From: Candidatus Gastranaerophilales bacterium | Lineage (GTDB): Bacteria; Cyanobacteriota; Vampirovibrionia; Gastranaerophilales; Gastranaerophilaceae | DNA length: 64,000 bases | Direction: 5' to 3' | Assembly (NCBI GenBank): GCA_017415185.1 | Contig: JAFQHZ010000009.1 | Span: 9,979 to 73,978, forward strand | Shown here: positions 4,157-55,197 of the stretch, piece after piece | Numbering within the stretch: position 1 is the first letter of the stretch | Layout: every line of letters begins with the position of its first letter | The notes under the pieces: generated by a model | Databases searched by the model: none | What the model was told of the DNA's origin: nothing | The model's input: only the letters and a program-made list of their open reading frames with translations | Position numbers and translations under genes: made by a program

Positions 4157-7100
4157 TGACAAGCAGTTATAATATCGTTGCCAGCACAAACCAAAGCACA
4201 GTCGTTGCAAAATATATACCAGACGAAAGAAAAGCCACGGCTTTTCAAAGCGAAGCTGAACTTGAAAATGAATTTATAAAAATATTAACTACTCTTGGTT
4301 ACGAATACATCAAAATTAAAAACGAAAAAGAATTAGTTGCCAATTTAAGAAAACAGCTAGAACTTCTTAACAATTTTAAATTTGAAGACGATGAATGGGA
4401 ACGATTTTACACTGAGTGCATCGCAAGCGCAAGCGAAGGCATTGTTGAAAAAACTAAAAAAATTCAAACTGGACATGTATTATCTTTTAAATGTAACAAT
4501 GGCAGAAGCGAAAATATACGCCTATTAGACAAAAAAGATATTCACAACAACAAATTGCAAGTAATCAACCAATACGAAGAACACGAAGGAAAGCATGAAA
4601 CCAGATATGATGTTACTATTTTAGTGAATGGCTTACCTTTAGTTCATATAGAATTAAAGCGTAGAGGTGTAGCCATTAAAGAAGCATTCAATCAAATCAA
4701 TCGTTATCAAAGAGATAGCTTCTGGGCTTCCAGCGGATTGTATGAGTACGTTCAAATATTTGTTATATCAAATGGGACAAATACTAAATATTACTCAAAC
4801 ACAACAAGAGAATCAGCCAAAAAAGAACAAAATAATATTAAAAACAGCAAAAGTAAACAAACAAGTAATAGTTTCGAATTTACTTCCTATTGGGCTGATG
4901 CTAGTAACAAAATTATTCCTGATTTAATTGATTTTACAAAAACTTTCTTTGCTAAACATACATTATTAAATATTCTCACTAAGTTCTGTGTATTCACATC
5001 AGAAGATTTGTTGCTTGTAATGAGACCTTATCAGATTTCTGCATGTGAAAAAATATTATCAAGAATTGAAGTAGCAAATAACTATAAATGGTATGGAAAA
5101 GTTGAAGGTGGTGGATATATTTGGCATACAACTGGTTCTGGAAAAACTTTAACCTCATTTAAGACAGCCCAACTGGCATGTGAACTTCCATATATTGACA
5201 AAGTATTGTTTGTTGTTGATAGAAAAGATTTAGATTTTCAAACAATGAAAGAATACGACAAATTTGAAGAAGGAGCAGCAAACGGCAACACTTCAACATC
5301 TATATTAAAAAAACAACTAGAAGATAATAACGCCAAAATTATCATTACAACAATTCAAAAATTAAATATTTTTATCAATAAAAACAAAGGACACGATGTA
5401 TTTAATAAACATGTAGTTATTATATTTGACGAATGTCATAGGTCTCAATTCGGCGAAATGCACTCTCAAATTATTAATTCATTTAAAAAATATCATTTAT
5501 TTGGCTTCACTGGTACGCCAATTTTTGCACTAAACACAGAAAAAGGAAACAAAAAAGACAAAAACGGGAAAATAATGCAAAAAACTACGCCTCAAATTTT
5601 CGGAGGCGAGCCAGACGAGAAAGGCAACAAAATATTGGCGCTTCATACCTATACTATTGTTAATGCAATTAACGACAACAATGTTTTGCCTTTTCGAATC
5701 GATTATATCAGTACCATGAAAGCCAAAGAAAATATCAAAGACGAAGAAATCACGGCAATCGACAAAGAAAAAGCAATGCTTGCCCCTAAAAGAATTTCAG
5801 AAATAACAAAATACATCCTAGAACATTTCGACCAAAAAACAATGCGAAATACAAGGACTTATGAATTCAACAAACTGATGAATATTCAAGAAGTTTCTTG
5901 CGATAAATCAAGAAATAAAATCAAAGAAATTAAAGAAAAAGTAAGATTAACGGGCTTTAATTCTATGTTTGCAGTTGCATCCATTGAAATGGCAAAAACA
6001 TATTATGCGGAATTCAAAAAGCAAATGGGAGAATTTCCAAAACTTAAAGTTGCTTTAATATATAGTTTTGGCACAAACGAAGATACAGAAGAAGGAATAT
6101 TAACAGAAGAAAATTCAGAAGACACAAGCAATCTTGATGAATCTTCAACAGATTTTCTAGACTCAGCCATTAACGATTATAATAAAATGTTTGCAACAAA
6201 TTACGATACATCAGCTGACAAATTCCAAAACTACTACAAAGATGTTTCTCAAAGAATGAAAAATCGAGAAATTGATTTGCTTATTGTTGCAAATATGTTC
6301 CTTACGGGCTTTGATGCTACAACATTAAATACATTATGGGTTGATAAAAATTTAAAATACCATGGCTTAATTCAAGCATTTTCAAGAACAAATAGAATCC
6401 TTAACTCTATTAAGACCTATGGCAACATTGTATGCTTCAGAGATTTAGAAGAAAGAACAAAAGACGCCATAGCACTATTTGGTGATGAAAATGCGGGAAG
6501 TATTGTATTATTAAGAACTTTCAAGGAATATTACTATGGCTATCAAGATAATAATGGCAAAAATCACAAAGGTTATATTGATTTAATTAATGAATTAAAT
6601 GAAAAGTTCCCACTAAGCAACCAGATTATTGGGGAAAAGAACGAAAAGGACTTTATTGCATTATTTGGCGCAATATTAAAAATGAAAAATATATTAACTT
6701 CATTTGATGATTTTAAAGGAATGTCAATTTTATCAGAAAGAGACTTTCAAGATCACCAAAGCAATTATTTGGATTTATATTACAAATGGAGAAAAAAAGA
6801 GGATGCGGAAAAAACCAATATCAATGATGATATTATTTTCGAAATAGAACTAATAAAACAAGTGGAAGTTAATATCGATTATATTTTAATGCTGGTCGCA
6901 AAATATCATGCCAGCAATTGCAAAAACAAGGAAATTCTTGTTGATATTAACAAAGCAATTGGTTCAAGTAGCCAACTAAGAAGTAAAAAAGAATTAATTG
7001 AAGCATTTATTGCAACTATAAACACAAATACTAAAATAGAAGAAGATTGGAAAAAATTTGTAGAAGAACAAAAAGAGGCAGATTTAACTGCAATTATAAA

Positions 7101-7305
7101 AGAAGAAAACCTCAAACAAGATGAAACTAAAAAGTTTATTGAAAACTCTTTTAGAGATGGAGAATTGAAAACAACAGGCACAGCAATAAGCAATATCCTA
7201 CCGCCTACGCCTCTTTTCGGCGCAAAAATAAATAGGCAAACAAAGCAACAAACAATAGTTGAAAAATTATCAAAATTCTTTGAAAAATACTTGGGAATTG
7301 TATAA
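4156..7305 (+). CDS. hsdR: Type I restriction enzyme, endonuclease/helicase subunit R
   Basis: It is 1049 aa. SF2 helicase motif I is HTTGSGKTLT and the DEAD/H box is FDECHRSQ. A C-terminal HsdR domain is present. It is the third gene of the hsdMSR operon. Confidence 0.93.
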   Translation: MTSSYNIVASTNQSTVVAKYIPDERKATAFQSEAELENEFIKILTTLGYEYIKIKNEKELVANLRKQLELLNNFKFEDDEWERFYTECIASASEGIVEKTKKIQTGHVLSFKCNNGRSENIRLLDKKDIHNNKLQVINQYEEHEGKHETRYDVTILVNGLPLVHIELKRRGVAIKEAFNQINRYQRDSFWASSGLYEYVQIFVISNGTNTKYYSNTTRESAKKEQNNIKNSKSKQTSNSFEFTSYWADASNKIIPDLIDFTKTFFAKHTLLNILTKFCVFTSEDLLLVMRPYQISACEKILSRIEVANNYKWYGKVEGGGYIWHTTGSGKTLTSFKTAQLACELPYIDKVLFVVDRKDLDFQTMKEYDKFEEGAANGNTSTSILKKQLEDNNAKIIITTIQKLNIFINKNKGHDVFNKHVVIIFDECHRSQFGEMHSQIINSFKKYHLFGFTGTPIFALNTEKGNKKDKNGKIMQKTTPQIFGGEPDEKGNKILALHTYTIVNAINDNNVLPFRIDYISTMKAKENIKDEEITAIDKEKAMLAPKRISEITKYILEHFDQKTMRNTRTYEFNKLMNIQEVSCDKSRNKIKEIKEKVRLTGFNSMFAVASIEMAKTYYAEFKKQMGEFPKLKVALIYSFGTNEDTEEGILTEENSEDTSNLDESSTDFLDSAINDYNKMFATNYDTSADKFQNYYKDVSQRMKNREIDLLIVANMFLTGFDATTLNTLWVDKNLKYHGLIQAFSRTNRILNSIKTYGNIVCFRDLEERTKDAIALFGDENAGSIVLLRTFKEYYYGYQDNNGKNHKGYIDLINELNEKFPLSNQIIGEKNEKDFIALFGAILKMKNILTSFDDFKGMSILSERDFQDHQSNYLDLYYKWRKKEDAEKTNINDDIIFEIELIKQVEVNIDYILMLVAKYHASNCKNKEILVDINKAIGSSSQLRSKKELIEAFIATINTNTKIEEDWKKFVEEQKEADLTAIIKEENLKQDETKKFIENSFRDGELKTTGTAISNILPPTPLFGAKINRQTKQQTIVEKLSKFFEKYLGIV

Positions 7306-7322
7306 CTGTCGTTTATATATAA

Positions 7323-7403
7323 TGCTGACGGGGAGACTCGAACTCCCACAGCTCTCGCCACATGCACCTCAAGCATGCGTGTCTACCATTCCACCACGTC
7401 AGC
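7323..7403 (-). tRNA. tRNA-Leu (anticodon GAG), class II with long variable arm
   Basis: The minus strand reads GCTGACGTGGTGGAATGGTAGACACGCATGCTTGAGGTGCATGTGGCGAGAGCTGTGGGAGTTCGAGTCTCCCCGTCAGCA. The 7-bp acceptor stem is GCTGACG/CGTCAGC. The anticodon stem is CATGC/GCATG with loop TTGAGGT, giving anticodon GAG. A long variable arm and a GTTCGAGTC T-loop are present. CCA is not encoded. Confidence 0.85.
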
Positions 7404-7407
7404 ATAA

Positions 7408-7666
7408 TACCGCACTATACCTATCGTCAAAATAACAATAGCCCTACGATTAAAAAACCTCCTAAATAAATCTCTATACCCACAAACTCGACCTTAGAGC
7501 TGCTATGTTTCCATCCTGACTCGGTTGGGGTGAATTTATGCCATAAAGACCTAAATCATCAACGATTTTCGAATTTTCAAACTACGATTAAATTTGCCTC
7601 ATAGTATACTCTGCACCCGACATAAGCTTTCGGTCAAGAGGATGCAACCCCCCGTGAAGTGCGGCA
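7408..7666 (-). ncRNA. ffs: signal recognition particle RNA, long (Alu-domain-containing) form; ends approximate
   Basis: The minus strand at 7520-7499 reads GUCAGGAUGGAAACAUAGCAGC. This is the SRP domain IV signature: GUCAGG, then helix AUG-GAAA(GNRA)-CAU, then AGCAGC. A terminal helix closes the molecule at about 255 nt by pairing CCGCACU (7664-7658) with AGUGCGG (7416-7410). The region is locally GC-enriched and has no ORF. Confidence 0.7.
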
Positions 7667-23547: not shown

Positions 23548-23575
23548 AAGAGCCCTAGTGGGCTCTTTTATTTTA
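23548..23575 (+). terminator. rho-independent terminator
   Basis: The hairpin AAGAGCCC-tagt-GGGCTCTT is followed by a T-rich tract. Confidence 0.6.
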
Positions 23576-25070
23576 CTTTTATAAACTTCCATTTAGGATT
23601 TTTTGTATCAAAAGGCAAGCTTGAAGCCTCTTCAAAAGGCATAATCAAACCTTTTTTATGATATTCTTTCCAAGTTTGTTTGAAAGCTCCTAAATTTCCG
23701 CCTCGTTCTACAACATCAATCAACAAATCAGCCAAACTTTCGTCATATCTTGATAAAATGCTTTGAATAATATCCCAATCAACGCTCGATGGTCTGAATG
23801 TTACGCCCATTTTATGAAATTCTTTTTTAAGATAATTTAAACGCTTTTCTAATATTTTTTTATCAGCTCTTTCAACAAGTTCAAAAGGAGTTTGCGCTTT
23901 TGGAATAAAAGTTGAAGTTGAAATTGTTATATCAAACGCACCGCCAATTTTTTTGACTTGCGCTTTCATTTCTTTGATTAAATCAACCAATGCTTCAATA
24001 TCTTCATCGACTTCAGTTGGAAGCCCAATCATTGTATAAATTTTCATTCCCTTTAAACCGTTTTTTTGAGCAACCGCCAAGGTTTTTAAAATTTGCTCTT
24101 GCGATAAATTTTTGTTTATATAATCTCTTAATCTTTGGCTGCCTGCCTCAAGCGCTATTGTTGCGGTTTTTTGGTTGCATTGGACTAAAAGCTTAATTAA
24201 ATTTTCATCCGCCAAATCAGCCCTTAAAGAAGAGATTGAAAGCTCTATCGGGCGAGTTTGACAATATGATGAAATATGTTCAATGATTTTATCAAAATCA
24301 GGATGTCCAGCAACATAGGCCCCCATTAAAGCCAATTTATCAGTGTATTGAAGTCCAAAATCTATTGCTTCAATAATTTTATTCAAAGGCACAAAACGAG
24401 TTGGAATATTTAAATGACTCGCTAAACAAAATTTGCACATTTTTGGACAACCACGCTCAATTTCAATAACAAAAGAATCCTTAAAATAACTTTTTTCAGA
24501 CAAAATCGGCGTGTAGACTATTTCATCATTCAAATTATCCCTAGTAATTTTAATTTCGTTTTTAGGATATTTTGGAACATAAATTCCATCAAGATTTGAT
24601 AATCTTTTCAACTTTTCATCACGAGACAAATCTCTGCATTTTTTTAATTCATCAAGCGCAAGTTTTAAAGAACATTTTTCTCCAATCGAAATAAAATCAA
24701 AAAATTCTTCAAAAGGCTTAGGATTCGCCATTAAAACAGGTCCACCTGCAAAAATTATTGGAGTGTCTTCATTTCTTTGCGAAAATTTTAATGGAATTTG
24801 ATATTTATTTAACATTTTAATAATGGTCAAAATATCGATTTCAAAACTCATCGAAAAACCAGCCAAATCAAGACAATCAAGCGGAATTTCAAATATCTTT
24901 GTATCAGAATAAATTCTCTCAACATAAAGTTCAGGGTCTAAATCTAGCATTTTAAATATTGAAAGATACCCCAATGACGCCATTGCAAAAGATTCAATTG
25001 CGCCATACATAAACCAAACATTTAATTTTGGGTCTTTTTCGCTTAATCTGCTATAAAGAAATTTTTCCAT
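23568..25070 (-). CDS. radical SAM protein with N-terminal B12-binding-like domain (uncharacterised subfamily)
   Basis: The CxxxCxxC cluster is ERGCPKMCKFCLAS. It is 500 aa with the usual downstream radical SAM core. Confidence 0.8.
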   Translation of the reverse strand: MEKFLYSRLSEKDPKLNVWFMYGAIESFAMASLGYLSIFKMLDLDPELYVERIYSDTKIFEIPLDCLDLAGFSMSFEIDILTIIKMLNKYQIPLKFSQRNEDTPIIFAGGPVLMANPKPFEEFFDFISIGEKCSLKLALDELKKCRDLSRDEKLKRLSNLDGIYVPKYPKNEIKITRDNLNDEIVYTPILSEKSYFKDSFVIEIERGCPKMCKFCLASHLNIPTRFVPLNKIIEAIDFGLQYTDKLALMGAYVAGHPDFDKIIEHISSYCQTRPIELSISSLRADLADENLIKLLVQCNQKTATIALEAGSQRLRDYINKNLSQEQILKTLAVAQKNGLKGMKIYTMIGLPTEVDEDIEALVDLIKEMKAQVKKIGGAFDITISTSTFIPKAQTPFELVERADKKILEKRLNYLKKEFHKMGVTFRPSSVDWDIIQSILSRYDESLADLLIDVVERGGNLGAFKQTWKEYHKKGLIMPFEEASSLPFDTKNPKWKFIKVK

Positions 25071-43443: not shown

Positions 43444-44160
43444 ATGGCATTAATCAAGGTTAAAAACGCAATAAGAACATATCAAATGGGCGATGAAACA
43501 TTTTACGCCTTAAACGATGTCTCTTTTGAAATTGAAGAAGGCGAATTTGTTGCAATAATGGGAACTTCAGGCTCTGGAAAATCAACCTGTATGAATATGC
43601 TAGGAACGCTTGATAAACCAACTAGCGGAGAATATTATCTTGATGGAGCAGATGTTTTTTCTCTTTCAAGCGATGAATTATCCGAAATAAGAAACAATAA
43701 AATTGGCTTTGTTTTTCAAGGATTCAACTTAATTTCAAGAACTTCAGCAATTGATAATGTTTGTTTGCCAATGATATATAAAGGTTTAAGCGAAGAAGAA
43801 AGATATAAGAAAGCAAGAGAAGCACTGAAAATTGTGGGTTTAGAAAATAAAGAAAACAACATGCCTTCTCAAATGTCTGGCGGTCAACAGCAAAGGGTTG
43901 CAATCGCAAGGGCAATTGTTAATGATGCACCTTTAATTTTAGCAGACGAACCAACAGGAAATTTAGACACCAAAACAAGCATTGACGTTATGGAATTTTT
44001 TGTTAATTTGAATAAAAAATTTGGAAAAACTGTCGTTTTGGTAACTCACGAGCCCGATATTGCACAATATACAAAAAGAATAATCCGCTTTAAAGACGGC
44101 AAAATTGTTTCCGATTTATCCAAAGAAGAATGGGAAAAACAAAGAAACAGGCAAACATAA
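43444..44160 (+). CDS. ABC transporter ATP-binding protein (MacB/LolD-like)
   Basis: Walker A is GTSGSGKST, the signature is MSGGQQQRVAIARA and Walker B is ILADEPTGNLD. Confidence 0.9.
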   Translation: MALIKVKNAIRTYQMGDETFYALNDVSFEIEEGEFVAIMGTSGSGKSTCMNMLGTLDKPTSGEYYLDGADVFSLSSDELSEIRNNKIGFVFQGFNLISRTSAIDNVCLPMIYKGLSEEERYKKAREALKIVGLENKENNMPSQMSGGQQQRVAIARAIVNDAPLILADEPTGNLDTKTSIDVMEFFVNLNKKFGKTVVLVTHEPDIAQYTKRIIRFKDGKIVSDLSKEEWEKQRNRQT

Positions 44161-44173
44161 TAAAAAGGACAAA

Positions 44174-44584
44174 ATGGAAAAAATTTTAGAAATTTATTTA
44201 ATTGCAACAAACACCATTGCGCTTGTTTCGCTCATTGGCTTTATAATATTAATTTCAACTAAAATTTCACAAAAAAATCCTTTTAGGGTTGCAAGCTGGC
44301 TTATTTTAATTGTCACATTAATTGGAATGTATTTATATATTCCTTCTAGGCTTTTTATTTCAGGCATAATTAATCAGAATATTAATCATTTAAAGACCGC
44401 AATTAAATTTTCAATTAATCCAGTCGAAAAAAGACTTTGCGAAGAATATATAAAAAACATTCAAAATAAATATATAAGTCCTGAAATATATAAAAAGATT
44501 GATAAACTTAAAAAAATGGATTTATTATTTTTCGAAATTCAAAACACTTATAATTTAAAAATGGAAAAATTAAGGAAAAATTAA
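44174..44584 (+). CDS. small hypothetical membrane protein inserted between the ABC ATPase and permease genes
   Basis: Starting from ATG 44174 it is 136 aa, with two hydrophobic helices and then a Lys-rich tail. Its stop overlaps the permease start (TAATG). Confidence 0.45.
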   Translation: MEKILEIYLIATNTIALVSLIGFIILISTKISQKNPFRVASWLILIVTLIGMYLYIPSRLFISGIINQNINHLKTAIKFSINPVEKRLCEEYIKNIQNKYISPEIYKKIDKLKKMDLLFFEIQNTYNLKMEKLRKN

Positions 44585-45810
44585 TGATAGATTATAAATC
44601 AACATTGCAAATTGCGCTTAATTCTCTAAAAGTTAATAAAATGCGCTCTGCACTAACTTCATTAGGCATTATTATTGGCGTTGCAGCAGTTATTATCATG
44701 CTTGCAATTGGTTCTGGCGCAAACAAACAAGTCCAAGAAAATATGGAATCAATGGGTTCTAATCTTTTAACAATTCGTTCCGCTACTGCTAAAACTGGCG
44801 GGGTTTCAATGGGAATGGGAACAAAGCCAACTCTTAGCGTTAAAGACGCAATTGCAATCAAAAGACAAGCACGAGGAGTTGAAGCAGTTGCTCCTGTTTT
44901 GAATTCTTCAAAACAAGTTATGTATGGGAATCAAAACTGGTCTACAACAGTTTATGGCGTTGACACAGCATACTTATACGCAAAAAATTATGAAATTAAT
45001 TTAGGCAAAAGTTTCAATAGAGACGATGACAATAATGCAGCAAAAGTTGCACTAATCGGAAAAACTATTGAAACTGAGCTTTTTGGAGACGTTAATCCTA
45101 TCGGAAAAACTATCCGCATTGGAAATGTTCCTTTTAAAGTTCTTGGAACATTAAAATCTAAAGGACAAATGGGAGCAATGGACCAAGACGATTTAATTTT
45201 TATACCCATTACAACGGCGCAAAGAAAAGTTTTTGGAACAGATTTCCCAGGGGCAGTCAGCCAAATTATAGTTAAAGCAAAATCAATTGAAGATTCCGCA
45301 ATTGCACAAAAAGATATCGAAGAAATTTTGAGACGTCGTCATAATCTTGGCAAAGCGCAACCTAACGATTTTCAAATTAGAAACAGCGCAGAATTTCAAG
45401 AAAAAATGAAATCAACAGTTCAAACTTTTGCAATTTTATTGGCTTCAATTGCTTCTGTTTCTTTGATTGTTGGAGGAATTGGCATTATGAATATCATGCT
45501 TGTTTCTGTAACCGAGAGAACAAAAGAAATTGGAATTAGGATGGCAATTGGTGCAAGAGCGGTTGATATAAGAACTCAATTTTTAATCGAAGCTCTTGTT
45601 CTTTCACTGTTAGGAGGCTTAATTGGAGTAATAGTTGGAATTATAATTGCCATTTTGATAGGCAAAATTTTTGCAACTTCAATCGTTATTTCCGCTTTTC
45701 CAATATTTTTGTCTTTTGGTTTTTCGGGACTTGTTGGAATCGGATTTGGCTATTATCCAGCTTATAAAGCAAGCTTATTAAACCCAATTGATGCTTTAAG
45801 ATATGAATAA
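44584..45810 (+). CDS. ABC transporter permease, MacB periplasmic-core + FtsX domain
   Basis: It has an N-terminal TM helix, a large periplasmic domain and a C-terminal FtsX-type 3-TM bundle (ERTKEIGIRMAIGA). Confidence 0.88.
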   Translation: MIDYKSTLQIALNSLKVNKMRSALTSLGIIIGVAAVIIMLAIGSGANKQVQENMESMGSNLLTIRSATAKTGGVSMGMGTKPTLSVKDAIAIKRQARGVEAVAPVLNSSKQVMYGNQNWSTTVYGVDTAYLYAKNYEINLGKSFNRDDDNNAAKVALIGKTIETELFGDVNPIGKTIRIGNVPFKVLGTLKSKGQMGAMDQDDLIFIPITTAQRKVFGTDFPGAVSQIIVKAKSIEDSAIAQKDIEEILRRRHNLGKAQPNDFQIRNSAEFQEKMKSTVQTFAILLASIASVSLIVGGIGIMNIMLVSVTERTKEIGIRMAIGARAVDIRTQFLIEALVLSLLGGLIGVIVGIIIAILIGKIFATSIVISAFPIFLSFGFSGLVGIGFGYYPAYKASLLNPIDALRYE

Positions 45811-47631
45811 ATTTTTTATTCTATCTTTGATTGTTGGTTTGTAGCCTTCGATTATTTTTAGGATTTCATTTTGGTTTGGAATATTTTTGGCATAGATGTT
45901 GTGGAGTTTGTTGCCTAGTTGTTTTATTCTTTCGTCATTGAAGATATTGGGTTGTTTTTGAGTGTTGTTTATTTCATCTGATATCATTTGTTTTATTTTA
46001 TCTTCATTGAGAGATTCTAGGGTTTTTATTATTTCAAGATATATTATTTTAGAATATTTCTTTTCTATGATTTCTTGTATTTTTTCTTTTGGTGTATTTG
46101 TGTAATATAGTTTGAAGTATTTTAGGTAGGCTTGGTAAAGGTGGAGTCTAGTATCTGTATTTTTAGAACTAGATTGAACACAACAAGCTCCTATGATAAC
46201 ATTGAGGAATTTTTTAATGTATTTTTTGTTGTTGAGGAGGATGGCGCAAAGAAAGCCTAAATAATTTTCTTTCAAATTAGTTTGAAAAAAATCACTCGAA
46301 GGCAATTCAAAAACAATATACTTATATAAATCCAATATTTCTTCAATTGTTTCATTTTCAATTTTTTGATTTTTTGAACAAAAAATATTTTGAATTTTCC
46401 TTTCATAATAAAATTTCTTCTCACTTAACATTATTGGATTTGAAAATTCATTTGCATAAATTGAAACTGTTGGAAATCCAAGAAAAGAACAATTTCTGAT
46501 ATAAATGTCATCAGTGTGCCTTAAGACAAGTTTAGCTAGGTTATTAAACATTGTTTTATTGTCTATTTCTTCATTGAATAGCCAAGTACCTTTGCTAAAT
46601 TCATAATCTGGTTTATTTGTTAGGATTTTTTTAATATGTTGGTTTGTTTTTTTGAGGAATCTTTCATTACGAAACTGATTTGTTATTATTTTCCTTAACG
46701 TAATTTGCTCAGCACTTGCAATATACCTTGCACATTTTCTATATTTTTCAAATTCACTATTACCTTGCAAAAATTCAGTTAAGCTTCGTTCTAGTGCAAT
46801 TGGGAAATATGGATGAGCACCAAATTTGAATACTACTCCATTTTTAGGGCAAATCTTATCTTCAAATATTGCACATATTGCTGGAAAATTATTGTCTAAT
46901 GAAGCGTCTTTAAGTGTTACGCCATATCCTAGGTTTTCTATTTCTTTAATTAATCCCATGATATTTTCATATTGTTCATAGTATTCTTTTGGAATATTTG
47001 GCATTGATATTTTTTTAACAAAGATTTGCTTAGCGCAATATCTTTCAATAACTTCACTTAATCCTTGAACGGAAGCTTCTTCAAATGTATTACCTGCAGC
47101 GAAGCCATTTGAGCCTTGAATACACATTTTTAAAAAAGAAGGAAAATATCTTATGCTTCTAGTTTTATAGGACAAAAAAGGAACAAAAATTATTCTTATT
47201 TGATTAGCCTCATTTATATTTTTTAAAGAAAAAATTTCTTCCGCAAGTTTTGATACCTCAAATCCTTCTTTAACTATTAAATTATTTTCTTGAATAATTT
47301 TTTTAAACCTATTGTCTCGCAAGCTGAATTTTTCGATTTTTTCGTCAGCGGCATAACAAAATTTTTCACCATTAAACTGAATTAACAACCCTGTCTGCAT
47401 TCTTTCTATAAATTCTGCATGAGCACTAGCAACAGCATTAACAAAACAAGAGCCTTTACCATTTGCTCTAATATTTTTATCGAAGTTTTTAATTTTCAAA
47501 ACAACACAAAAATGACTTTGCCCAGATTCAACATCTATAATTTCTATTTCAATACCAAGTTTATCAAGGATTTTCTTGATTCTTTTTACTGTGTTTTCAG
47601 GTGTTTCATCTTTTCTTATGCTATATTCCAT
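45796..47631 (-). CDS. YcaO-superfamily protein, stand-alone E. coli-like type, paralog A (611 aa)
   Basis: The motif ANGKGSCFVNAVASAHAEFIERMQT and the motif SNGFAAGNTFEEASVQGLSEVIERY match the YcaO ATP/Mg-binding signatures. It has a long helical C-terminal half. Confidence 0.8.
   Translation of the reverse strand: MEYSIRKDETPENTVKRIKKILDKLGIEIEIIDVESGQSHFCVVLKIKNFDKNIRANGKGSCFVNAVASAHAEFIERMQTGLLIQFNGEKFCYAADEKIEKFSLRDNRFKKIIQENNLIVKEGFEVSKLAEEIFSLKNINEANQIRIIFVPFLSYKTRSIRYFPSFLKMCIQGSNGFAAGNTFEEASVQGLSEVIERYCAKQIFVKKISMPNIPKEYYEQYENIMGLIKEIENLGYGVTLKDASLDNNFPAICAIFEDKICPKNGVVFKFGAHPYFPIALERSLTEFLQGNSEFEKYRKCARYIASAEQITLRKIITNQFRNERFLKKTNQHIKKILTNKPDYEFSKGTWLFNEEIDNKTMFNNLAKLVLRHTDDIYIRNCSFLGFPTVSIYANEFSNPIMLSEKKFYYERKIQNIFCSKNQKIENETIEEILDLYKYIVFELPSSDFFQTNLKENYLGFLCAILLNNKKYIKKFLNVIIGACCVQSSSKNTDTRLHLYQAYLKYFKLYYTNTPKEKIQEIIEKKYSKIIYLEIIKTLESLNEDKIKQMISDEINNTQKQPNIFNDERIKQLGNKLHNIYAKNIPNQNEILKIIEGYKPTIKDRIKNLFIS
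45812..46242. repeat. ~431-bp near-identical direct repeat (copy 1; partner at 52254-52684)
   Basis: By eye the two copies align without gaps at a constant offset of 6442 bp, with only scattered mismatches. The repeat covers the C-terminal ~145 codons of YcaO paralogs A and D. Confidence 0.85.
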
Positions 47632-47634
47632 TTG

Positions 47635-49506
47635 TTACCTATTTGTGGTGAATATGTTTTTTATTCTATCTTTGATTGTCGGTTTGTAGCCTTCGATTAT
47701 TTTTAGGATTTCATTTTGGTTTGGGATATTTTTGGCGTAGATGTTGTGGAGTTTGTTGCCTAGTTGTTTTATTCTTTCGTCGTATTCAAAACCTTGGCTT
47801 TTAAAATCTTTTCTTGTATCGCCGCCTTCTTTTTTATTTATTAAATTCGTTTGAAAAATTTTTTCAATTTTTTCAAAAGATAACGTTTCTAAAAAATTTT
47901 CTATTTCAAAATATATTATTTTAGAATATTTCTTTTCTATGATTTCTTGTATTTTTTCTTTTGGTGTATTTGTGTAATATAGTTTGAAGTATTTTAGGTA
48001 GGCTTGGTAGAGGTGGAGCATAGCGTCCATTTTTTTATTTTGAGAACGCATACAATAAATCGCAATAAGACCTTTTAAAAATTTTTTAACATATTTTTTC
48101 TTATCTAACAAAACCGAACATAAAAATCCAAAATGATAATCTAATACATCCAAACCAGAAACGGCTAACGGCTCAGAAAAAACAATATATTTAAAATATT
48201 CAAATAATTCTTCAAGTTCCAAATTAAAATCAATTTTATTCTTAAAACAAGTTTTGCATTTATAATAATTTGTTAATGTTTCAATATAATTTTGTTTAAC
48301 TACAAGCGGATTTGAAAATTCTCCAGCATAAATTGCAACTGTTGGAAATCCAAGAAAAGAATAATTTCTAATGTAAATATCATCAGTATATTCTAAAATC
48401 TTTTTAGATAATTTATTAAATAATTTTTTATTAGTTAAATTTTCATTACGCAGCCAAGTATTTTCATCAAATTCATAATCAGGAACACTATTTATATTTT
48501 TTTTGATTATTTTATTTTCTTTTTTTATATAATTTTTTTGGCAAAACTGTTCAGCTACCATTTTTCCTGCAGACGTACTATATATACTATGCAAATATTT
48601 TGCTTTTTCTCGAAATTCACTAAAACGCTCTACTCCTTGTAAAAATTCAGTCAAAGTTCGCTCAATTGCAATTTGCAAATATGGATGTGCGCCAAAACGC
48701 ACCAAGTAACCATTTTTTTTATATAGCTTATCTTCCATAAACGCACAAGCTGCACATAGACCTTCTCCTAATGATGCATCCTTTAAAATTACCTTATAGC
48801 CTAATTTTTCTATTTCTTTAATTAATCCTATGATATTTTCATATTGTTCATAGTATTCTTTTGGAATATTTGGCATTGATATTTTATTAATAAATACTTG
48901 TTTGCAGCAATACCTTTCTATTATTTCACTCAGCGCTTGCGTGCAAGCTTCTTCGAATGTGTTTCCTGCGGCATGTCCATTTGAATTTTGCAAAAAATGT
49001 ATTAAAAGCATAGGCAAATATTCAATTTTTTTATTTTTATACGAAACTAATGGAACAACGGGGGTCTGATTTTGTTTAATTTTAGACAACGAATCCAAAT
49101 AAAATTTTAAATCAACGCTTTGAACAATTTTATTAAAATCATACAAAGCAATATTTAAGGACTCTAAATGATTTGAAAATAAAGTATTTTTGAGAAAATC
49201 AACATCTAAAATCTTTTCATCAGGATCAAATTTGAATTTATCTCCAAAAAAAGGAAGTAGAAAATGGGTTTGCAAATATTCAATAAATTCCGCATATCCA
49301 CTTGCCAAAGAATTTTCATAACTTGTTCCTTTGCCTGTTGTTTCAATATTTTCTTTGCAATTTTTTATTTTTACAGCAACCGAAAAATACTTTTCGCCAC
49401 TTCCAATGTTTGAAACTTCTGTCTCAATCCCGCATTTTTCCAATTTTTCTTTTATCTTTTTAACAGTTTTTTTAGGTTTTTCGTCTTTTTTAATACTGTA
49501 TTTCAT
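47635..49506 (-). CDS. YcaO-superfamily protein, paralog B (623 aa)
   Basis: It has TGKGTSYENSLASGYAEFIEYLQT and SNGHAAGNTFEEACTQALSEIIERY. A 3-nt gap separates it from paralog A. Confidence 0.8.
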   Translation of the reverse strand: MKYSIKKDEKPKKTVKKIKEKLEKCGIETEVSNIGSGEKYFSVAVKIKNCKENIETTGKGTSYENSLASGYAEFIEYLQTHFLLPFFGDKFKFDPDEKILDVDFLKNTLFSNHLESLNIALYDFNKIVQSVDLKFYLDSLSKIKQNQTPVVPLVSYKNKKIEYLPMLLIHFLQNSNGHAAGNTFEEACTQALSEIIERYCCKQVFINKISMPNIPKEYYEQYENIIGLIKEIEKLGYKVILKDASLGEGLCAACAFMEDKLYKKNGYLVRFGAHPYLQIAIERTLTEFLQGVERFSEFREKAKYLHSIYSTSAGKMVAEQFCQKNYIKKENKIIKKNINSVPDYEFDENTWLRNENLTNKKLFNKLSKKILEYTDDIYIRNYSFLGFPTVAIYAGEFSNPLVVKQNYIETLTNYYKCKTCFKNKIDFNLELEELFEYFKYIVFSEPLAVSGLDVLDYHFGFLCSVLLDKKKYVKKFLKGLIAIYCMRSQNKKMDAMLHLYQAYLKYFKLYYTNTPKEKIQEIIEKKYSKIIYFEIENFLETLSFEKIEKIFQTNLINKKEGGDTRKDFKSQGFEYDERIKQLGNKLHNIYAKNIPNQNEILKIIEGYKPTIKDRIKNIFTTNR

Positions 49507-49514
49507 AAAATAAC

Positions 49515-51353
49515 CTATCTGGCAAATTTCTTTATTATTTTGTCTTTCAAACTAATTTTATAGTCATCAAACATTTCGAGTAATACTTTTTGTTTTGGAA
49601 TATTTTTTTCATACATTAAAGTAAGTTTTTTGCCTATTTTTTCAAGCTCAACATCTTTGGATGCTTCCAGAACAGGCGCAATTTTTTTTATTTCTTCTTC
49701 TATTTTCTCTTTTATTTTATCTTCATTGAGGGATTCTAGGGTTTTTATTATTTCAAGATATATTATTTTAGAATATTTCTTTTCTATGATTTCTTGTATT
49801 TTTTCTTTTGGTGTATTTGTGTAATATAGTTTGAAGTATTTTAGGTAGGCTTGATAAAGATGTAAAGTGGTGTCAGTTATTTTAGATTGAGAATAAATAC
49901 AAAGCGTTCCAATTATTGCATTTGCAAACTTTTTAATATACTTTTTATTTTGCAAAAAAACCGCACAAAGAAAACCGAAATAATGAAACTCTGTTTTTTC
50001 AAAATAACTTGTAATCAATGGTCTTTCAAAAATAACGAATTTAAAAATTTCAAATAACTCTTCTATTCCATTATTTTTTATTTCCTCTTTTGTAAATCTC
50101 ATAAACTGATGATATTTTTTTAATTTTTTAAAATAATTTTTGTCTATTATCAAAGGGTTAGAAAATTCTCCAGCATAAATAGCAACTGTTGGAAATCCAA
50201 GAAAAGAATAATTTCTGATATAAATATCATCAGTGTGTTTTAAAACAAGTTTAGCTAAATTATTAAACATTACTTTGTTGCTAACATCTTCATCAAACAA
50301 CCAATTATTTTTATCAAACTTATATTTGCAATTATCAGATAAAATTTTTTCTATTGTTTTGTTTGTTCTTTTAAAAAATCTTTTTTTATAAACTTGCTCT
50401 GCTAAAATTTTTTTCGTTGTTGAACTATAAATACTATGAATATACTTTGCATGTTTTCTAAACTCTTCAAATTGATTATTCCCTTGCAAAAATTCAGTTA
50501 ATGTTCTCTCAAGAGCAATTGGAAAATATGGATGAGTACCAAATCTAAAAGTTACTCCATTTTTTAAATTTTTTAAATCTTCAACTATAACGCAAACTGT
50601 TGGAAAATTTTTACCCAAAGAAGCATCTTTCAGAATTACCTTATAACCTAATTTTTCTATTTCTTTAATTAATCCTATGATATTTTCATATTGTTCATAG
50701 TATTCTTTTGGAATATTTGGCATTGATATTTTATTTAAAAAAACTTGTTTATAACAATATCTTTCAACAATCTCGCTTAGCCCCTGAAGTGAGGCTTCTT
50801 CAAACGTATTACCTGCCGCAAGGCCAGTACTGCCTTGTAAAAATTGCGCCAAAAATAATGAAATATCGATGATTTTTTTTTGTTTATATGAAGCAAAAGG
50901 AATAATAGGCAGATTATCAGTTCCTAATTTTTCAAAAATTAATGGATTATATTTAATTTTTGAAAACATAATTGCTTTATAAGCGTTCTCGATCGATATA
51001 CCTTTTTTTTTAAATTCTTTTATAACAATTTCTTCATTATTTGAATGAATATTAATAATTTTTTCATCAGGAGCAGAACAAAATTTTTCTTCATGAAATG
51101 GAATCAAAAAATTAGTCTGCAATCTTTCCATAAATTCAGCATAACCACTTGCAAGCGCATTAATTGGACAAGAGCCTTTGCCATTTGTGCCTATTTTTTC
51201 ATTAACATTTTTCAAATGAACATATGCGGACAAAGAATATTTTTCACAACCAGTCTCCACAACAGCAGTTTCAATACCATTCTTTTTCAGAATTTTCTGT
51301 ATTCTTTTAACAGTATTTTCAGGCTTATCGTCTTTTTTGATACTATACTGCAT
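49515..51353 (-). CDS. YcaO-superfamily protein, paralog C (612 aa)
   Basis: It has TNGKGSCPINALASGYAEFMERLQT and STGLAAGNTFEEASLQGLSEIVERY. An 8-nt gap separates it from paralog B. Confidence 0.8.
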   Translation of the reverse strand: MQYSIKKDDKPENTVKRIQKILKKNGIETAVVETGCEKYSLSAYVHLKNVNEKIGTNGKGSCPINALASGYAEFMERLQTNFLIPFHEEKFCSAPDEKIINIHSNNEEIVIKEFKKKGISIENAYKAIMFSKIKYNPLIFEKLGTDNLPIIPFASYKQKKIIDISLFLAQFLQGSTGLAAGNTFEEASLQGLSEIVERYCYKQVFLNKISMPNIPKEYYEQYENIIGLIKEIEKLGYKVILKDASLGKNFPTVCVIVEDLKNLKNGVTFRFGTHPYFPIALERTLTEFLQGNNQFEEFRKHAKYIHSIYSSTTKKILAEQVYKKRFFKRTNKTIEKILSDNCKYKFDKNNWLFDEDVSNKVMFNNLAKLVLKHTDDIYIRNYSFLGFPTVAIYAGEFSNPLIIDKNYFKKLKKYHQFMRFTKEEIKNNGIEELFEIFKFVIFERPLITSYFEKTEFHYFGFLCAVFLQNKKYIKKFANAIIGTLCIYSQSKITDTTLHLYQAYLKYFKLYYTNTPKEKIQEIIEKKYSKIIYLEIIKTLESLNEDKIKEKIEEEIKKIAPVLEASKDVELEKIGKKLTLMYEKNIPKQKVLLEMFDDYKISLKDKIIKKFAR

Positions 51354-51375
51354 GGCATTCCTCAGTATATAGTCA

Positions 51376-52206
51376 TTAATTTACTAATTTGAATATTTGA
51401 TTACAGATATTGAATGTTTTTTCACAACTATCTAATGGTAACATGTTATCGCCATCGCAAAGAGCATGTTCTGGGTCTGGGTGAATTTCAAAAAATAAAA
51501 CTTTCGCACCAGCCGCAACAGCAGATTTCGCCAAAAGTTCAACAAATCTTCTCTCACCCGAGGAAGAACCACCATGTCCACCCGGAATTTGCACACTATG
51601 CGTCGCATCAAAACACATTGGATATCCCAAATCTTCTTGAGTTATTGCAACAGAGCGCATATCAACAACAAGGTTATTATAGCCAAAGCTTGTTCCTCTA
51701 TCGGTGATTATAATTTTATCATTTCCAGAATCAGAAACTTTTTTTGCTATTGATTTCATTTGATATGGCGACAAAAATTGTCCTTTTTTAATATTAACAA
51801 TTTTTCCAGTTTTAGCTGCTGCAACCAATAAATCTGTTTGTCTGCATAAAAAAGCCGGAATTTGAATTATATCAGCAACTTTTGCAGTGGGTTCTGCTTG
51901 CCAAGATTCGTGGATATCAGTAACTATTGGAACATTTAATTCTTTTTTAACTCGTGCTAAAATTTCAAGCCCTTCTTCCATGCCCAAACCACGATATGAA
52001 TCCAAAGAAGAACGATTGGCCTTATCGAAAGAAGTTTTAAAAACAAAATTAATATCTAAACGTTCACAAATTTCTTTTAATTTTTTAGCGGTTTTTAATG
52101 ATATTTCCTCTGATTCCATAGCGCAAGGACCCGCTAAAATTGTTAATTTATCCCCTGCAATTTCAAAATTGTTTAATTCTATTGTTTTCATAAGAATATT
52201 ATACAA
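51376..52206 (-). CDS. kdsA: 3-deoxy-8-phosphooctulonate (KDO-8-P) synthase
   Basis: It has the KdsA signatures LAGPCAMESEE and FKTSFDKANRSS and is 276 aa. It is embedded in the YcaO array on the same strand. Confidence 0.92.
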   Translation of the reverse strand: MYNILMKTIELNNFEIAGDKLTILAGPCAMESEEISLKTAKKLKEICERLDINFVFKTSFDKANRSSLDSYRGLGMEEGLEILARVKKELNVPIVTDIHESWQAEPTAKVADIIQIPAFLCRQTDLLVAAAKTGKIVNIKKGQFLSPYQMKSIAKKVSDSGNDKIIITDRGTSFGYNNLVVDMRSVAITQEDLGYPMCFDATHSVQIPGGHGGSSSGERRFVELLAKSAVAAGAKVLFFEIHPDPEHALCDGDNMLPLDSCEKTFNICNQIFKLVN

Positions 52207-52240
52207 TAATTAATCAAAATAAAAAAGAAAAACGCTTAAA

Positions 52241-54064
52241 TTATTGGAATATGTTTTTTATTCTATCTTTGATTGTTGGTTTGTAGCCTTCGATTATTTT
52301 TAGAATTTCATTTTGGTTTGGAATGTTTTTGGCGTAGATGTTATGGAGTTTATTGCCTAGTTGTTTTATTCTTTCGTCGTTGAAGATGTTGGGTTGTTTT
52401 TGGGTGTTGTTTATTTCGTCTGATATCATTTGTTTTATTTTATCTTCATTGAGGGATTCTAGGGTTTTTATTATTTCAAGATATATTATTTTAGAATATT
52501 TCTTTTCTATGATTTCTTGTATTTTTTCTTTTGGTGTATTTGTGTAGTATAGTTTGAAGTATTTTAGGTAGGCTTGGTAGAGGTGGAGTCTAGTATCTGT
52601 ATTTTTAGAACTAGATTGAACACAACAAGCTCCTATGATAACATTAAGGAATTTTTTGATGTATTTTTTGTTGTTGAGGAGGATAGAAGCGTAAAAGCCC
52701 AAAGAATAGTCTTTTATTTCAGAAAAATATGCATTTCCTGACAATCTTTCAAAACCTGCAAATTTACAAGCCTCAAACACGTCAAAAATTAAAAAATCTT
52801 GGATAGTTTTTCTATATCTATACATTTTTTTCATTTTTTTAAAAATATCATTAGAATACACCATAGGATCAGAAAATTCATATGCATAAATTGAAACTGT
52901 TGGAAATCCAAGAAAAGAACAATTTCTGATATAAATGTCGTCAGTGTGCTTTAAGACAAGTTTAGCTAGGTTATTAAACATTGTTTTGTTGTCTATTTCT
53001 TCATTGAATAGCCAAGTATCTTTGTTAAATTCATAATCTGGTTTATTTGTTAGGATTTTTTTAATATGTTGATTTGTTTTTTTGAGGAATTTTCTCTTTT
53101 TTAATTGTTCAATAATAATTTTTGGAACAGAAACGCAATTAATATTGTGTAAATATTTTGCTTTTTTTCTATATTCATCAAAACCACTATTACCTTGCAA
53201 AAATTCAGTCAAGCTACGCTCTAGCGCAATTGGGAAATATGGATGAGCACCAAATTTGAATACTACTCCATTTTTAGGGTAAATTTTGTCTTCAAATATT
53301 GCACATATTACTGGGAAATTGTTGCCTAATGATGCATCTTTAAGTGTTACGCTATATCCTAAGTTTTCTATTTCCTTAATTAATCCTATGATATTTTCAT
53401 ATTGTTCATAGTATTCTTTTGGAATATTTGGCATTGATATTTTTTTAACAAAGATTTGCTTGGCACAATATCTTTCAATAACTTCACTCAACCCTTGAAC
53501 AGAAGCTTCTTCAAATGTATTACCAGCAGCGAAGCCATTTGAGCATTGAAGAAATCTTTGCAATAATAAGGGAATATATTCGATTTTTTTATTTTTATAC
53601 GAAACAAAAGGCGCAGTAAAAGTTTTATTTTCATCTACTTTATCAAACGCTCCTTCGCAAGATTTTGAGCGAGCCAATTTGGAAATTTCAAATATTTCTT
53701 CAATATTTGTATTAAATTTTTTTAAATGAATATTTAAAGAATTATCACAAAGATTTTTTATATTTTCAATTTTTTCATCAGATTCAAAATTAAATTTCTC
53801 CCCACAAAAAGGAATAAGAAAATTCGTCTGCAATCTTTCCATAAATTCAGCATAGCCACTGGCAAGACAATTAATTTCATTCGCACCCTTGCCATTTGCA
53901 TTAATATCATTATCAAAATCACGAAACTTAATAACAGAAGAAGAATGAAATTCGCCAGTTTCAAGTCTAGCGACTTCAGTATAAACTCCATATTTATCAA
54001 GAATCTTTTTTATTCTTTTAACAGTGTTTTCTGGTGTTTCGTCTTTTTTTATACTGTATTTCAT
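52241..54064 (-). CDS. YcaO-superfamily protein, paralog D (607 aa)
   Basis: It has ANGKGANEINCLASGYAEFMERLQT and SNGFAAGNTFEEASVQGLSEVIERY. It is the first gene of the co-directional array. Confidence 0.8.
   Translation of the reverse strand: MKYSIKKDETPENTVKRIKKILDKYGVYTEVARLETGEFHSSSVIKFRDFDNDINANGKGANEINCLASGYAEFMERLQTNFLIPFCGEKFNFESDEKIENIKNLCDNSLNIHLKKFNTNIEEIFEISKLARSKSCEGAFDKVDENKTFTAPFVSYKNKKIEYIPLLLQRFLQCSNGFAAGNTFEEASVQGLSEVIERYCAKQIFVKKISMPNIPKEYYEQYENIIGLIKEIENLGYSVTLKDASLGNNFPVICAIFEDKIYPKNGVVFKFGAHPYFPIALERSLTEFLQGNSGFDEYRKKAKYLHNINCVSVPKIIIEQLKKRKFLKKTNQHIKKILTNKPDYEFNKDTWLFNEEIDNKTMFNNLAKLVLKHTDDIYIRNCSFLGFPTVSIYAYEFSDPMVYSNDIFKKMKKMYRYRKTIQDFLIFDVFEACKFAGFERLSGNAYFSEIKDYSLGFYASILLNNKKYIKKFLNVIIGACCVQSSSKNTDTRLHLYQAYLKYFKLYYTNTPKEKIQEIIEKKYSKIIYLEIIKTLESLNEDKIKQMISDEINNTQKQPNIFNDERIKQLGNKLHNIYAKNIPNQNEILKIIEGYKPTIKDRIKNIFQ
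52254..52684. repeat. ~431-bp near-identical direct repeat (copy 2; partner at 45812-46242)
   Basis: See copy 1. Further A/D near-identical blocks lie at about 46441-46660 / 52871-53090 and about 46760-47140 / 53190-53570. Confidence 0.85.
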
Positions 54065-54138
54065 AATTGTTAAGTTATATAGTTTTACACAATTTTATTA
54101 TATAATATTTATTGGAGCAAGAAAAGCGAGGAAAAATT

Positions 54139-55197
54139 ATGTGTGCAGCACCAATTGATGAAAAAGAATTGCAAGCCATTCAAGAAGGCAAAAATAAAGC
54201 GTTAAAATTAGCTTTAGATAAAATTGAAAAAGATTTCGGCAAAGGCTCAATTATGCGTCTTGGCGATAAAACAAGTGTTGATTGCGAATGCATTCCAACA
54301 GGAGCATTGGCGCTCGATATCGCTCTTGGCATAGGCGGTGTTCCTAGAGGAAGAATTATTGAAATTTATGGACCTGAAGCTTCTGGTAAAACCACTCTTG
54401 CTCAACATATTGTTGCAAATGCACAAAAAAAGGGTGGAATTGCAGCATATATTGACGCAGAACACGCACTAGACCCAGAATATGCAAGAAATCTTGGTGT
54501 AGATATTGACCAATTGTTAATTTCACAACCCGACACAGGAGAACAAGCTCTTGAAATCGCAGAAGAATTAGTTCGCTCAGGCGCAATTGACGTTGTTGTT
54601 GTGGATTCTGTTGCGGCATTAGTTCCAAAAGCAGAAATCGAAAAAGCAATGGACGAACAACAAATGGGGCTTCAAGCTCGTTTAATGTCTAAAGGCTTAA
54701 GAAAACTAACCGCAATCGTTGCAAAAACCAATACAACAGTGATTTTCATTAACCAATTAAGACAAAAAATCGGCATTATGTTTGGAAATCCTGAAACAAC
54801 AACAGGCGGACAAGCATTAAAATATTATTCTTCCGTGCGTTTAGACATAAGAAGATGTGACAGCGTTAAAAACAAAGATAACGAAGATATTGGAAACAGA
54901 GTTCGTGTAAAAGTTGCAAAAAACAAAGTAGCTCCTCCATTCAAAGTTTGCGAATTTGATATTATTTATGGAAAAGGCATTTGCGCATTAGGCAATATTA
55001 TTGATGTTGCAGTTAATTACAACATTATCAAAAAAGCAGGTGCTTGGTTTAGCTATAACGATGAAAAACTTGGACAAGGAAGAGAAAAAGCAAAAGAATT
55101 TTTAGAACAAAATACTGAAATTCTTGCTGAAATCGAAACAAAAGTTAGAGAAAAAATAGCAAAGAAAAATCAACCAATTCAAGAGGAAGAAAAATAA
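54139..55197 (+). CDS. recA: recombinase RecA
   Basis: It has Walker [12 protein letters not shown] and family-wide conservation. The start is set to ATG 54139, behind a GCGAGGA RBS, rather than the TTG at 54112. Confidence 0.95.

Follow-up and report, generated by a model that had tools for sequence, protein, structure and literature searches.

Four tandem YcaO genes lie in a 64,000-nucleotide (nt) stretch of a Candidatus Gastranaerophilales genome (assembly GCA_017415185.1, contig JAFQHZ010000009.1, positions 9,979 to 73,978; hereafter the window, with position 1 as its first letter). Their sequences form a mosaic, in which sharply bounded blocks of 96-100% nucleotide identity alternate with divergent segments and the partners sharing a block change along the genes. 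We attribute the mosaic among these paralogs, designated A to D, to repeated interlocus gene conversion, a reading to which we assign a rough probability of 0.8. Each of the four is full-length, all share one orientation with little space between them, and their arrangement with kdsA is as follows.

45796-47631, minus strand: YcaO paralog A, open reading frame (ORF) of 611 amino acids, PF02624 match with E = 4e-42
47635-49506, minus strand: YcaO paralog B, ORF of 623 amino acids, PF02624 match with E = 2e-38
49515-51353, minus strand: YcaO paralog C, ORF of 612 amino acids, PF02624 match; adjoins kdsA
51376-52206, minus strand: kdsA (KDO (3-deoxy-D-manno-octulosonate)-8-phosphate synthase family), ORF between C and D
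52241-54064, minus strand: YcaO paralog D, ORF of 607 amino acids, PF02624 match; upstream of kdsA

The mosaic was mapped on a codon alignment of A-D by sliding windows and maximal-segment analysis, with edges placed from codon-by-codon difference strings. Divergence is expressed as Nei-Gojobori proportions of synonymous (pS) and nonsynonymous (pN) differences. Amino acid identity among the paralogs is 53-57%, but reaches 71% for A and D. Depending on the pair, the converted fraction amounts to ~10-60% of gene length, and the longest exact repeat between paralogs is 122 bp. An earlier note on this DNA, made from the letters alone, had described three near-identical blocks in A and D. Two of them were recovered as described, 45812-46242 with 52254-52684 (417/431 identical, 96.8%) and 46441-46660 with 52871-53090 (212/220, 96.4%). 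The third, 46760-47140 with 53190-53570, is present but not near-identical, since only 347 of its 381 positions agree (91.1%), and it is older than the other two. The reported blocks common to all four copies exist at 98-100% identity, with coordinates off by a few bases at most. A 3' end of ~126-134 bp is common to A, B and D at 95.5-97.6%, without C, and B and C have blocks of their own at codons 207-240 (99%) and 374-398 (95.9%). The divergent segments between A and D also proved real and sharply edged (alignment codons 26-173, ~293-325 and 399-465). The individual blocks and tracts are listed below.

A 46934-47013, B 48806-48885, C 50653-50732, D 53364-53443, minus strand: all-four block I (codons 208-234), 98.8-100% nucleotide identity in all pairs
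A 46030-46146, B 47902-48018, C 49749-49853, D 52472-52588, minus strand: all-four block II (codons 498-536), 98-100% nucleotide identity
A 45991-46134, C 49710-49853, D 52433-52576, minus strand: A/C/D tract without B (codons 502-549), A/C and C/D 99.3%
A 45812-45936, B 47657-47781, D 52254-52378, minus strand: 3'-terminal A/B/D tract, 95.5-97.6% identity
A 45811-46242, D 52253-52684, minus strand: long A/D tract (codons 466-618), 458 aligned nt with 14 mismatches
A 46441-46659, D 52871-53089, minus strand: young A/D tract (codons 326-398), pS 0.09
A 46735-47115, D 53165-53545, minus strand: older A/D tract (codons 174-300), pS 0.24, pN 0.03, 91% nucleotide identity
B 48314-48387, C 50161-50234, minus strand: B/C tract (codons 374-398), 95.9% identity

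All-four block I encodes KISMPNIPKEYYEQYENI(M/I)GLIKEIE and block II encodes LHLYQAYLKYFKLYYTNTPKEKIQEIIEKKYSKIIY. The A/C/D tract, which had not been singled out before, is bounded for B by that copy's departure from codon 534 on. All 14 mismatches of the long A/D tract are synonymous, and the 3'-terminal A/B/D tract has a pN of 0 with a pS of 0.17-0.25.

Synonymous divergence along the genes is strongly non-uniform, with saturated pS values of 0.5-0.9 over most windows and 0-0.13 within blocks. A, B and C agree at all 31 synonymous sites of the all-four blocks (binomial P ~5e-10 against a background pS of 0.5). A GENECONV-like permutation test identified significant shared fragments in five of the six paralog pairs (A-B, A-D and C-D, p <= 1e-4; B-D, 0.003; A-C, 0.012), and a neighbour-incompatibility statistic of the PHI (pairwise homoplasy index) type gave p = 1e-4. 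Constraint at the protein level cannot account for the 100% identity of the all-four blocks, because the same columns are only 38-50% identical among nine orthologs of other species. For block I in particular, pS is 0-0.08 and orthologs are merely ~50% identical at its columns.

Synonymous-site identity confined to short, discrete blocks of all four genes is also what selection on the nucleotide sequence itself could produce, for instance selection to preserve an RNA structure, a regulatory site within the gene or an overlapping gene. Such selection would leave the 430-460 bp tracts and the changing subsets of copies unexplained, and the same segments are not so conserved in orthologs. Neither strand of the blocks showed a folding signal (z-scores -1.0 to +0.3), no Rfam match was found in the region, and promoter-like and terminator-like sites are not enriched. 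We regard this as the least probable of the explanations considered.

The A/D tracts belong to at least two age classes, with a pS of 0.24-0.29 in codons 174-300 and 570-618 versus 0.09-0.13 in codons 326-398 and 466-560 (Fisher p = 0.011). Because they are unequal in age, several conversion events are needed to produce them.

Comparison with relatives places these events in time. In a sister species (L003/L009, BRZ_AG bin62) the gene order is recA-kdsA-single YcaO (S1)-macB, and in a further close species (L007/L008) it is YcaO (X1)-kdsA-X2-X3-macB, with kdsA occupying the same position as in the window. More distant relatives carry one YcaO copy each in other genomic contexts, as seen within 10-kb flanks, and the copy number among close relatives is 1, at least 3 or 4. 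No near-identical blocks occur among the three YcaO copies of L007/L008, whose best block reaches 77-80%, which indicates that the homogenisation is specific to the lineage of the window and took place after speciation. Between these species kdsA, macB, recA and dnaK show a synonymous divergence (dS) of 0.7-1.2 and a nonsynonymous divergence (dN) of 0.04-0.10, and the YcaO paralogs, with a dS of ~1, date back roughly as far as the divergence from the sister species. Wider searches added no closer homologs. With protein A alone as query, GTDB representative genomes gave no match, with an alignment as query they gave relatives at <=49% identity only, and a search of 5.8 billion proteins returned nothing between 71% (the array's own paralog) and 49% identity.

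Block-wise neighbour-joining trees with bootstrap, to which the sister-species orthologs were added, switch topology from block to block, as concerted evolution predicts. In the mid-conserved segments outside the all-four blocks, C groups with S1 (79% bootstrap) and A with D (100%), and C is the copy nearest to S1 wherever segments are unconverted. The four paralogs are monophyletic to the exclusion of S1 in the all-four blocks (98%), and a clade of A, B and D (93%) at the C-terminus leaves C outside.

The array could alternatively have acquired chimeric genes through unequal reciprocal crossing-over as it expanded and contracted, in which case the mosaic would be a record of the birth of the copies. 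The YcaO genes are direct tandem repeats, their number varies among close relatives, and S1 resembles C in its body and A at its 3' end, as if the end copies had kept ancestral ends. A single event of this kind leaves one junction per gene, however, and not internal tracts of 80-144 bp with saturated flanks in all four genes. The most similar pair, A and D, is also the most distant one and is separated by an unduplicated kdsA, and tracts of unlike age coexist within one gene pair. Short internal tracts with divergent flanks, together with A/D exchange over the intervening kdsA, C and B, require non-reciprocal or double-crossover events and not to one unequal crossover, and we consider unequal crossing-over improbable as the origin of the mosaic.

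The array has been assembled independently several times. Relative to the window, a 158-kb scaffold (L025, SAMN15829896) differs at 3 positions in 21,760 nt, L001/L026 (SAMN15829902) at 4 in 20,977 nt, and the two contigs of a MEGAHIT assembly, L002 and L027 (ERZ27256787), at 0 and 1. Genes A, B and C show 0 differences across assemblies from at least three samples, the four-gene structure is reproduced, and outside the array the remainder of the ~21.7 kb compared holds 0-1 single-nucleotide polymorphism (SNP) between assemblies.

These data bear on whether the identical blocks are an artefact of assembly or consensus calling, such as would come from repeat collapse, chimeric joining or the smoothing of paralogous variants. 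Every source is a metagenome assembly, and the MEGAHIT assembly is split inside C exactly at all-four block I, with L002 starting from 50735, L027 running to 50697 and the two contigs overlapping by ~39 nt (50697-50735). Two of the three differences in D, moreover, fall in or at the edge of block II, where its variant is outnumbered by three other copies and is open to assembler smoothing. A mis-join can exchange the flanks of a repeat but cannot make the repeat, and the split in C demonstrates a genuine repeat that troubles assembly, not an invented one. Chimeric joins, which the earlier note had raised against its own proposal, are not borne out, as the same mosaic came from at least three samples and different pipelines. 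The 122-bp longest exact repeat is shorter than k = 141, a value suggested by the 'k141' contig names in ERZ27256787, and shorter than common 150-nt reads, and older tracts with scattered synonymous differences and a pN of 0 carry a biological signature. Since the structure is reproduced and no exact repeat exceeds 122 bp, an assembly origin of the blocks is unlikely, and we give it very little credence.

All differences between assemblies inside the array lie in D, at 52547, 52580 and 53545. The first two are synonymous and lie in or beside block II, and the third is Cys174Gly. They define three haplotypes of D, with an intermediate one in L027, and the alternative allele equals paralog A at every site. 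The polymorphisms could be due to ongoing micro-conversion. We do not take them as proof of it, since a new mutation in D within a 96%-identical block would also make the other assemblies match A.

Divergent segments account for over half of each gene, or ~40% for A and D. Three variable patches were delimited.

A 47116-47556, B 48988-49431, C 50835-51278, D 53546-53989, minus strand: variable patch 1 (A residues 26-172), pN/pS 0.64-0.81
A 46660-46734, B 48532-48606, C 50379-50453, D 53090-53164, minus strand: variable patch 2 (A residues 300-324), differences from about residue 292
A 46243-46440, B 48115-48312, C 49962-50159, D 52685-52870, minus strand: variable patch 3 (A residues 398-463), pN/pS 0.58-0.95

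Within patch 1, residues 101-165 share just 11-32% amino acid identity among paralogs, with orthologs equally low, and the rest of the patch is not that low. Residues ~90-150 have a predicted local distance difference test score (pLDDT) of 42-60 in an AlphaFold2 (AF2) model. By profile alignment, patch 2 corresponds to E. coli YcaO residues ~297-321, including T317 and E320. Patch 3, with 23-38% amino acid identity among paralogs, comprises the first helices of the C-terminal helical domain in the model (helices 404-417, 429-441 and 453-465). The patches match the least conserved regions of the family, measured against orthologs (Spearman per-column 0.55; smoothed rho 0.75), and also the low-confidence parts of the AF2 model. 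Their pN/pS ratios of 0.4-1.0 reveal no surplus of amino acid change and, given that pS is saturated, are uninformative as a test of positive selection.

A conserved scaffold with localised variable regions had suggested a diversification system, in which recent duplicates would have acquired their divergent segments through targeted hypermutation or strong diversifying selection. Some features fit. YcaO dN between these Gastranaerophilales is 0.37-0.49, that is, 5-10 times higher than in the flanking housekeeping genes kdsA, macB, recA and dnaK; pN/pS approaches 1 in patches 2 and 3 for some pairs; and patch 2 falls at proposed substrate-interface positions of E. coli YcaO. The divergent segments are nevertheless synonymously saturated (pS 0.5-0.7), like comparisons between species, so they are old and not just fast at the protein level, and within them C clusters with the ortholog of another species. 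They span over half of each gene (~40% for A and D) and track low conservation across the family. Four assemblies, drawn from at least three samples, agree throughout the patches, and this comparison, which the earlier note had proposed for strains, gave no variants within them. The 64-kb window holds no further YcaO-like fragments or cassettes (only chance matches of 18-46 nt) and no template repeats, and no reverse transcriptase was found among its ORFs. The proteins look cytoplasmic, with no signal peptide apparent by eye at the N-termini of A-D. A programmed or selected diversification is therefore not borne out, and we hold it to be highly improbable. Being weakly conserved family-wide, invariant across assemblies and without cassettes, the patches are better described as islands of divergence persisting under concerted evolution. 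The proposal of repeated segmental conversion with changing partners finds good support in non-uniform pS, significant fragments, sharp edges, conflicting trees, age classes and reproducibility.

If gene conversion is responsible, four old, intact tandem paralogs would have swapped tracts of 80-460 bp repeatedly by non-reciprocal homologous recombination, presumably in a RecA-dependent manner. Tracts would begin in the segments that purifying selection keeps most alike, each homogenised segment would offer a better substrate for the next exchange, and segments too divergent to pair would end the tracts. The outcome would be patchy concerted evolution, in which the three divergent islands correspond to weakly constrained parts of the protein throughout the family. 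The islands may persist because divergence blocks recombination there, and selection probably retains paralog-specific substrate recognition by removing conversions that overwrite them.

Several points weigh against gene conversion or limit how far it can be read. Conversion is seen only through its products, donor and recipient are unassignable for most tracts, and we infer their identity, as well as any functional role of the islands and all-four blocks, indirectly. With four sequences and saturated synonymous sites outside the tracts, only rough figures can be given for the ages and number of events. Shuffling of variable sites, as in the permutation tests, accounts incompletely for rate heterogeneity, and all data are short-read metagenome assemblies. 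The S1-like 3' end of A and body of C could stem from tandem duplication by unequal crossing-over, and the D polymorphisms are also compatible with fresh mutation in D or with assembler smoothing within repeats.

By predicted architecture, A-D are stand-alone YcaO enzymes of the E. coli type. They score 133-145 bits with Pfam PF02624 (cut-off 25.7; E 1e-38 to 1e-42) and 125-140 bits with TIGR00702 (cut-off 75.65). The best NCBIfam model is the 'YcaO_for_S12' equivalog NF040716, yet the score is 179-197 bits against a cut-off of 700 and the match is confined to the N-terminal ~390 of 571 profile positions. Scores fall short of the cut-offs for TIGR03604, the SagD-type azoline-forming TOMM (thiazole/oxazole-modified microcin) cyclodehydratases (46-53 bits versus 219), and for TIGR03266, the TfuA-associated thioamidating YcaOs of the McrA type (56-66 bits versus 365). 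No TfuA was found among the neighbours or among window ORFs of >=150 amino acids, and no E1-like protein, RRE (RiPP recognition element) partner, dehydrogenase or precursor gene lies near the array, nor do such partner families occur among the window ORFs. The close spacing of the genes (gaps of 3-34 nt) and their neighbours macB, kdsA and recA likewise agree with enzymes that act alone.

The AF2 model of A has a pLDDT of 82 and a predicted template modelling score (pTM) of 0.85. With this model as a Foldseek query, the top 41 PDB matches are all YcaO enzymes, the best being 4Q85/4Q86/4Q84 (E ~1e-23, template modelling score 0.55-0.58 over ~580-630 columns), and the family profile matches E. 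coli YcaO (4Q84-86) over residues 7-403 (hmmsearch E = 2e-50). The aligned E. coli positions S71, E75, E78, N187, E191, E199, E202 and R286 are conserved in A-D, and S71, E75, E78, E199, E202 and R286 are ones that we take from the 4Q85 work to be ATP/Mg2+ positions. A-D all carry the motifs ASxxAEFxE, GNTFEEAxxQxLSExxERY and ALERxLTEFLQG, which align to these ATP/Mg2+ positions. The C-terminal domain of A-D allows no sequence alignment to E. coli YcaO, and placement on that protein is thus confined to patch 2 and N-terminal positions.

E. coli YcaO has recently been assigned as the thioamidase of ribosomal protein uL16 at Met82, and it is a homodimer with a pI (isoelectric point) of 4.4 that recognises folded uL16 via a broad acidic surface (PMC13063428). 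The pI of A-D is 8.95-9.23, and eight of nine relatives lie at 8.5-9.2, the exception being P0013 at 6.1. A pI of ~9 weakens membership of the uL16 type without excluding it, as an AT-rich, lysine-rich proteome inflates pI. Because of this pI and the failed equivalog threshold, A-D are not filed as uL16 thioamidases.

Twelve positions of E. coli YcaO, among them R295, T317 and E320, were chosen as plausible uL16-interface residues, and single-alanine interface variants affected binding only slightly (PMC13063428). In A-D, the counterparts of R295, T317 and E320 map in or at the edge of patch 2, those of D325 and L329 just after it, and those of L55 and F57 to the divergent N-terminal region. 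This alignment gives a hint that the islands may contribute to substrate recognition. One could go further and suppose that A-D differ in function, each enzyme modifying a protein or peptide substrate of its own, that the three islands are recognition surfaces, and that conversion filtered by selection keeps the catalytic core and the all-four segments identical in every copy. We put this forward tentatively and think it rather unlikely in so specific a form. Were this so, several distinct cellular proteins of a gut Melainabacterium would receive backbone modifications, and one could read from the mosaic which residues set specificity in stand-alone YcaOs. The all-four segments, A residues 207-233 and 496-534, could be a common partner site or a homo- or heterodimer interface, the latter idea being suggested by the homodimeric state of E. 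coli YcaO.

The array thus resembles E. coli YcaO (4Q84-4Q86) in sequence and fold, for which that protein is the best match, in its conserved ATP/Mg-site residues, in length class (586 versus 607-623 amino acids), in a YcaO domain followed by a helical C-terminal domain, and in the lack of an adjacent partner or precursor gene. It differs in scoring far below the NF040716 cut-off, in a C-terminal domain that is unalignable by sequence, in a pI of ~9 versus 4.4, with the acidic surface of uL16-modifying YcaOs missing, and in having four paralogs versus one in a very fast-evolving family.

Gene conversion and concerted evolution in prokaryotes have been reviewed (PMC6053082; PMC8223754), and 'islands of divergence' under conversion have been described for other gene families (PMC3728101). 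The array shares with these bacterial cases segments that are more alike between paralogs than to orthologs, short and sharply bounded tracts with synonymous identity and changing partners and topologies, and divergent islands that remain between converted tracts. Whereas tuf or rRNA genes are homogenised over their whole length, conversion here is patchy (~10-60% of length), and in contrast to surface-antigen conversion it affects four enzyme genes of one operon. Antigenic variation from cassettes and diversity-generating retroelements likewise combine a conserved scaffold, localised variable regions and recombination between related copies. Unlike those systems, the array has no silent or truncated cassettes, reverse transcriptase or template repeat in the 64-kb window, its patches are invariant among assemblies and equal the regions unconstrained family-wide, and its conversion homogenises instead of diversifying. 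The process is known and the YcaO array is a fresh instance of it; a literature search gave no earlier report of gene conversion in YcaO genes.

For genome evolution, the array offers a clean and statistically strong bacterial case of patchy concerted evolution within one operon, combining tracts of several ages, changing partners and lasting divergent islands, even though the mechanism itself is well known. For YcaO biology, it represents a basic, fast-evolving, lineage-specific four-copy expansion of the E. coli-type architecture in gut Gastranaerophilales, within a group of stand-alone enzymes for which a substrate (uL16) has only just been assigned (PMC13063428). The conversion map separates segments that are possibly exchanged freely from paralog-specific ones, which provides a testable guess at the specificity determinants and a reason to seek several modified protein substrates in these bacteria. 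It is also a warning for annotation, as paralog trees and short-read variant calls are unreliable at this locus.

In L007, the third YcaO was called from 3147 (566 amino acids). An intact frame with a normal YcaO N-terminus begins at 2991 (2991-4847) and shares 67 nt with the end of the YcaO gene before it; the start as called is probably incorrect.

Gaps of only 3-34 nt within D-kdsA-C-B-A, and no convincing terminator-like site between the array genes, suggest that these five genes are probably co-transcribed as a single operon. The kdsA assignment follows from a Pfam DAHP_synth_1 match found on the identical locus L001. The array is bordered by macB beyond A and by recA and dnaK upstream of D. 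Paralog A and macB are convergent and their 3' ends overlap by 15 bp. The same 15-bp convergent overlap of the macB-adjacent YcaO is present in three species (window 45796-45810; L003 11831-11845; L007 4833-4847), and in all three the macB-adjacent copy terminates in ...FIS. This overlap possibly limits change in the 3' end common to A, B and D. We do not claim a functional link between the array and the adjacent MacAB-TolC genes, with synteny kept only in the three closest species.

On the other side of the array, the start of D and the likely ATG of recA at 54139 are only ~74 nt apart (54065-54138). This ATG is preceded by GGAG...GAGG, and the TTG listed as the start, at 54112, probably lies too far upstream. 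With the ATG at 54139, recA and the YcaO operon would be transcribed divergently from one very short promoter region.

Between the MacB-type ATPase and permease genes, a plus-strand ORF at 44105-44584 (136-159 amino acids) has no Pfam match. In L003 the site lacks this ORF, and in L007 it is taken up by three other small genes, one encoding a helix-turn-helix protein. Further from the array, a minus-strand gene at 23568-25070 encodes a radical SAM (S-adenosylmethionine) protein with Radical_SAM_N2 and Radical_SAM domains. It is the sole radical SAM enzyme found in the window, lies ~21 kb from the array and has no evident link to the YcaO genes. Near the start of the window, a complete type I restriction-modification system occupies 1494-7305 on the plus strand (hsdM 1494-3059, hsdS 3059-4156, hsdR 4156-7305). 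Just downstream of hsdR, a tRNA-Leu(GAG) at 7322-7404 and a bacterial small SRP (signal recognition particle) RNA at 7462-7555 adjoin each other on the minus strand.

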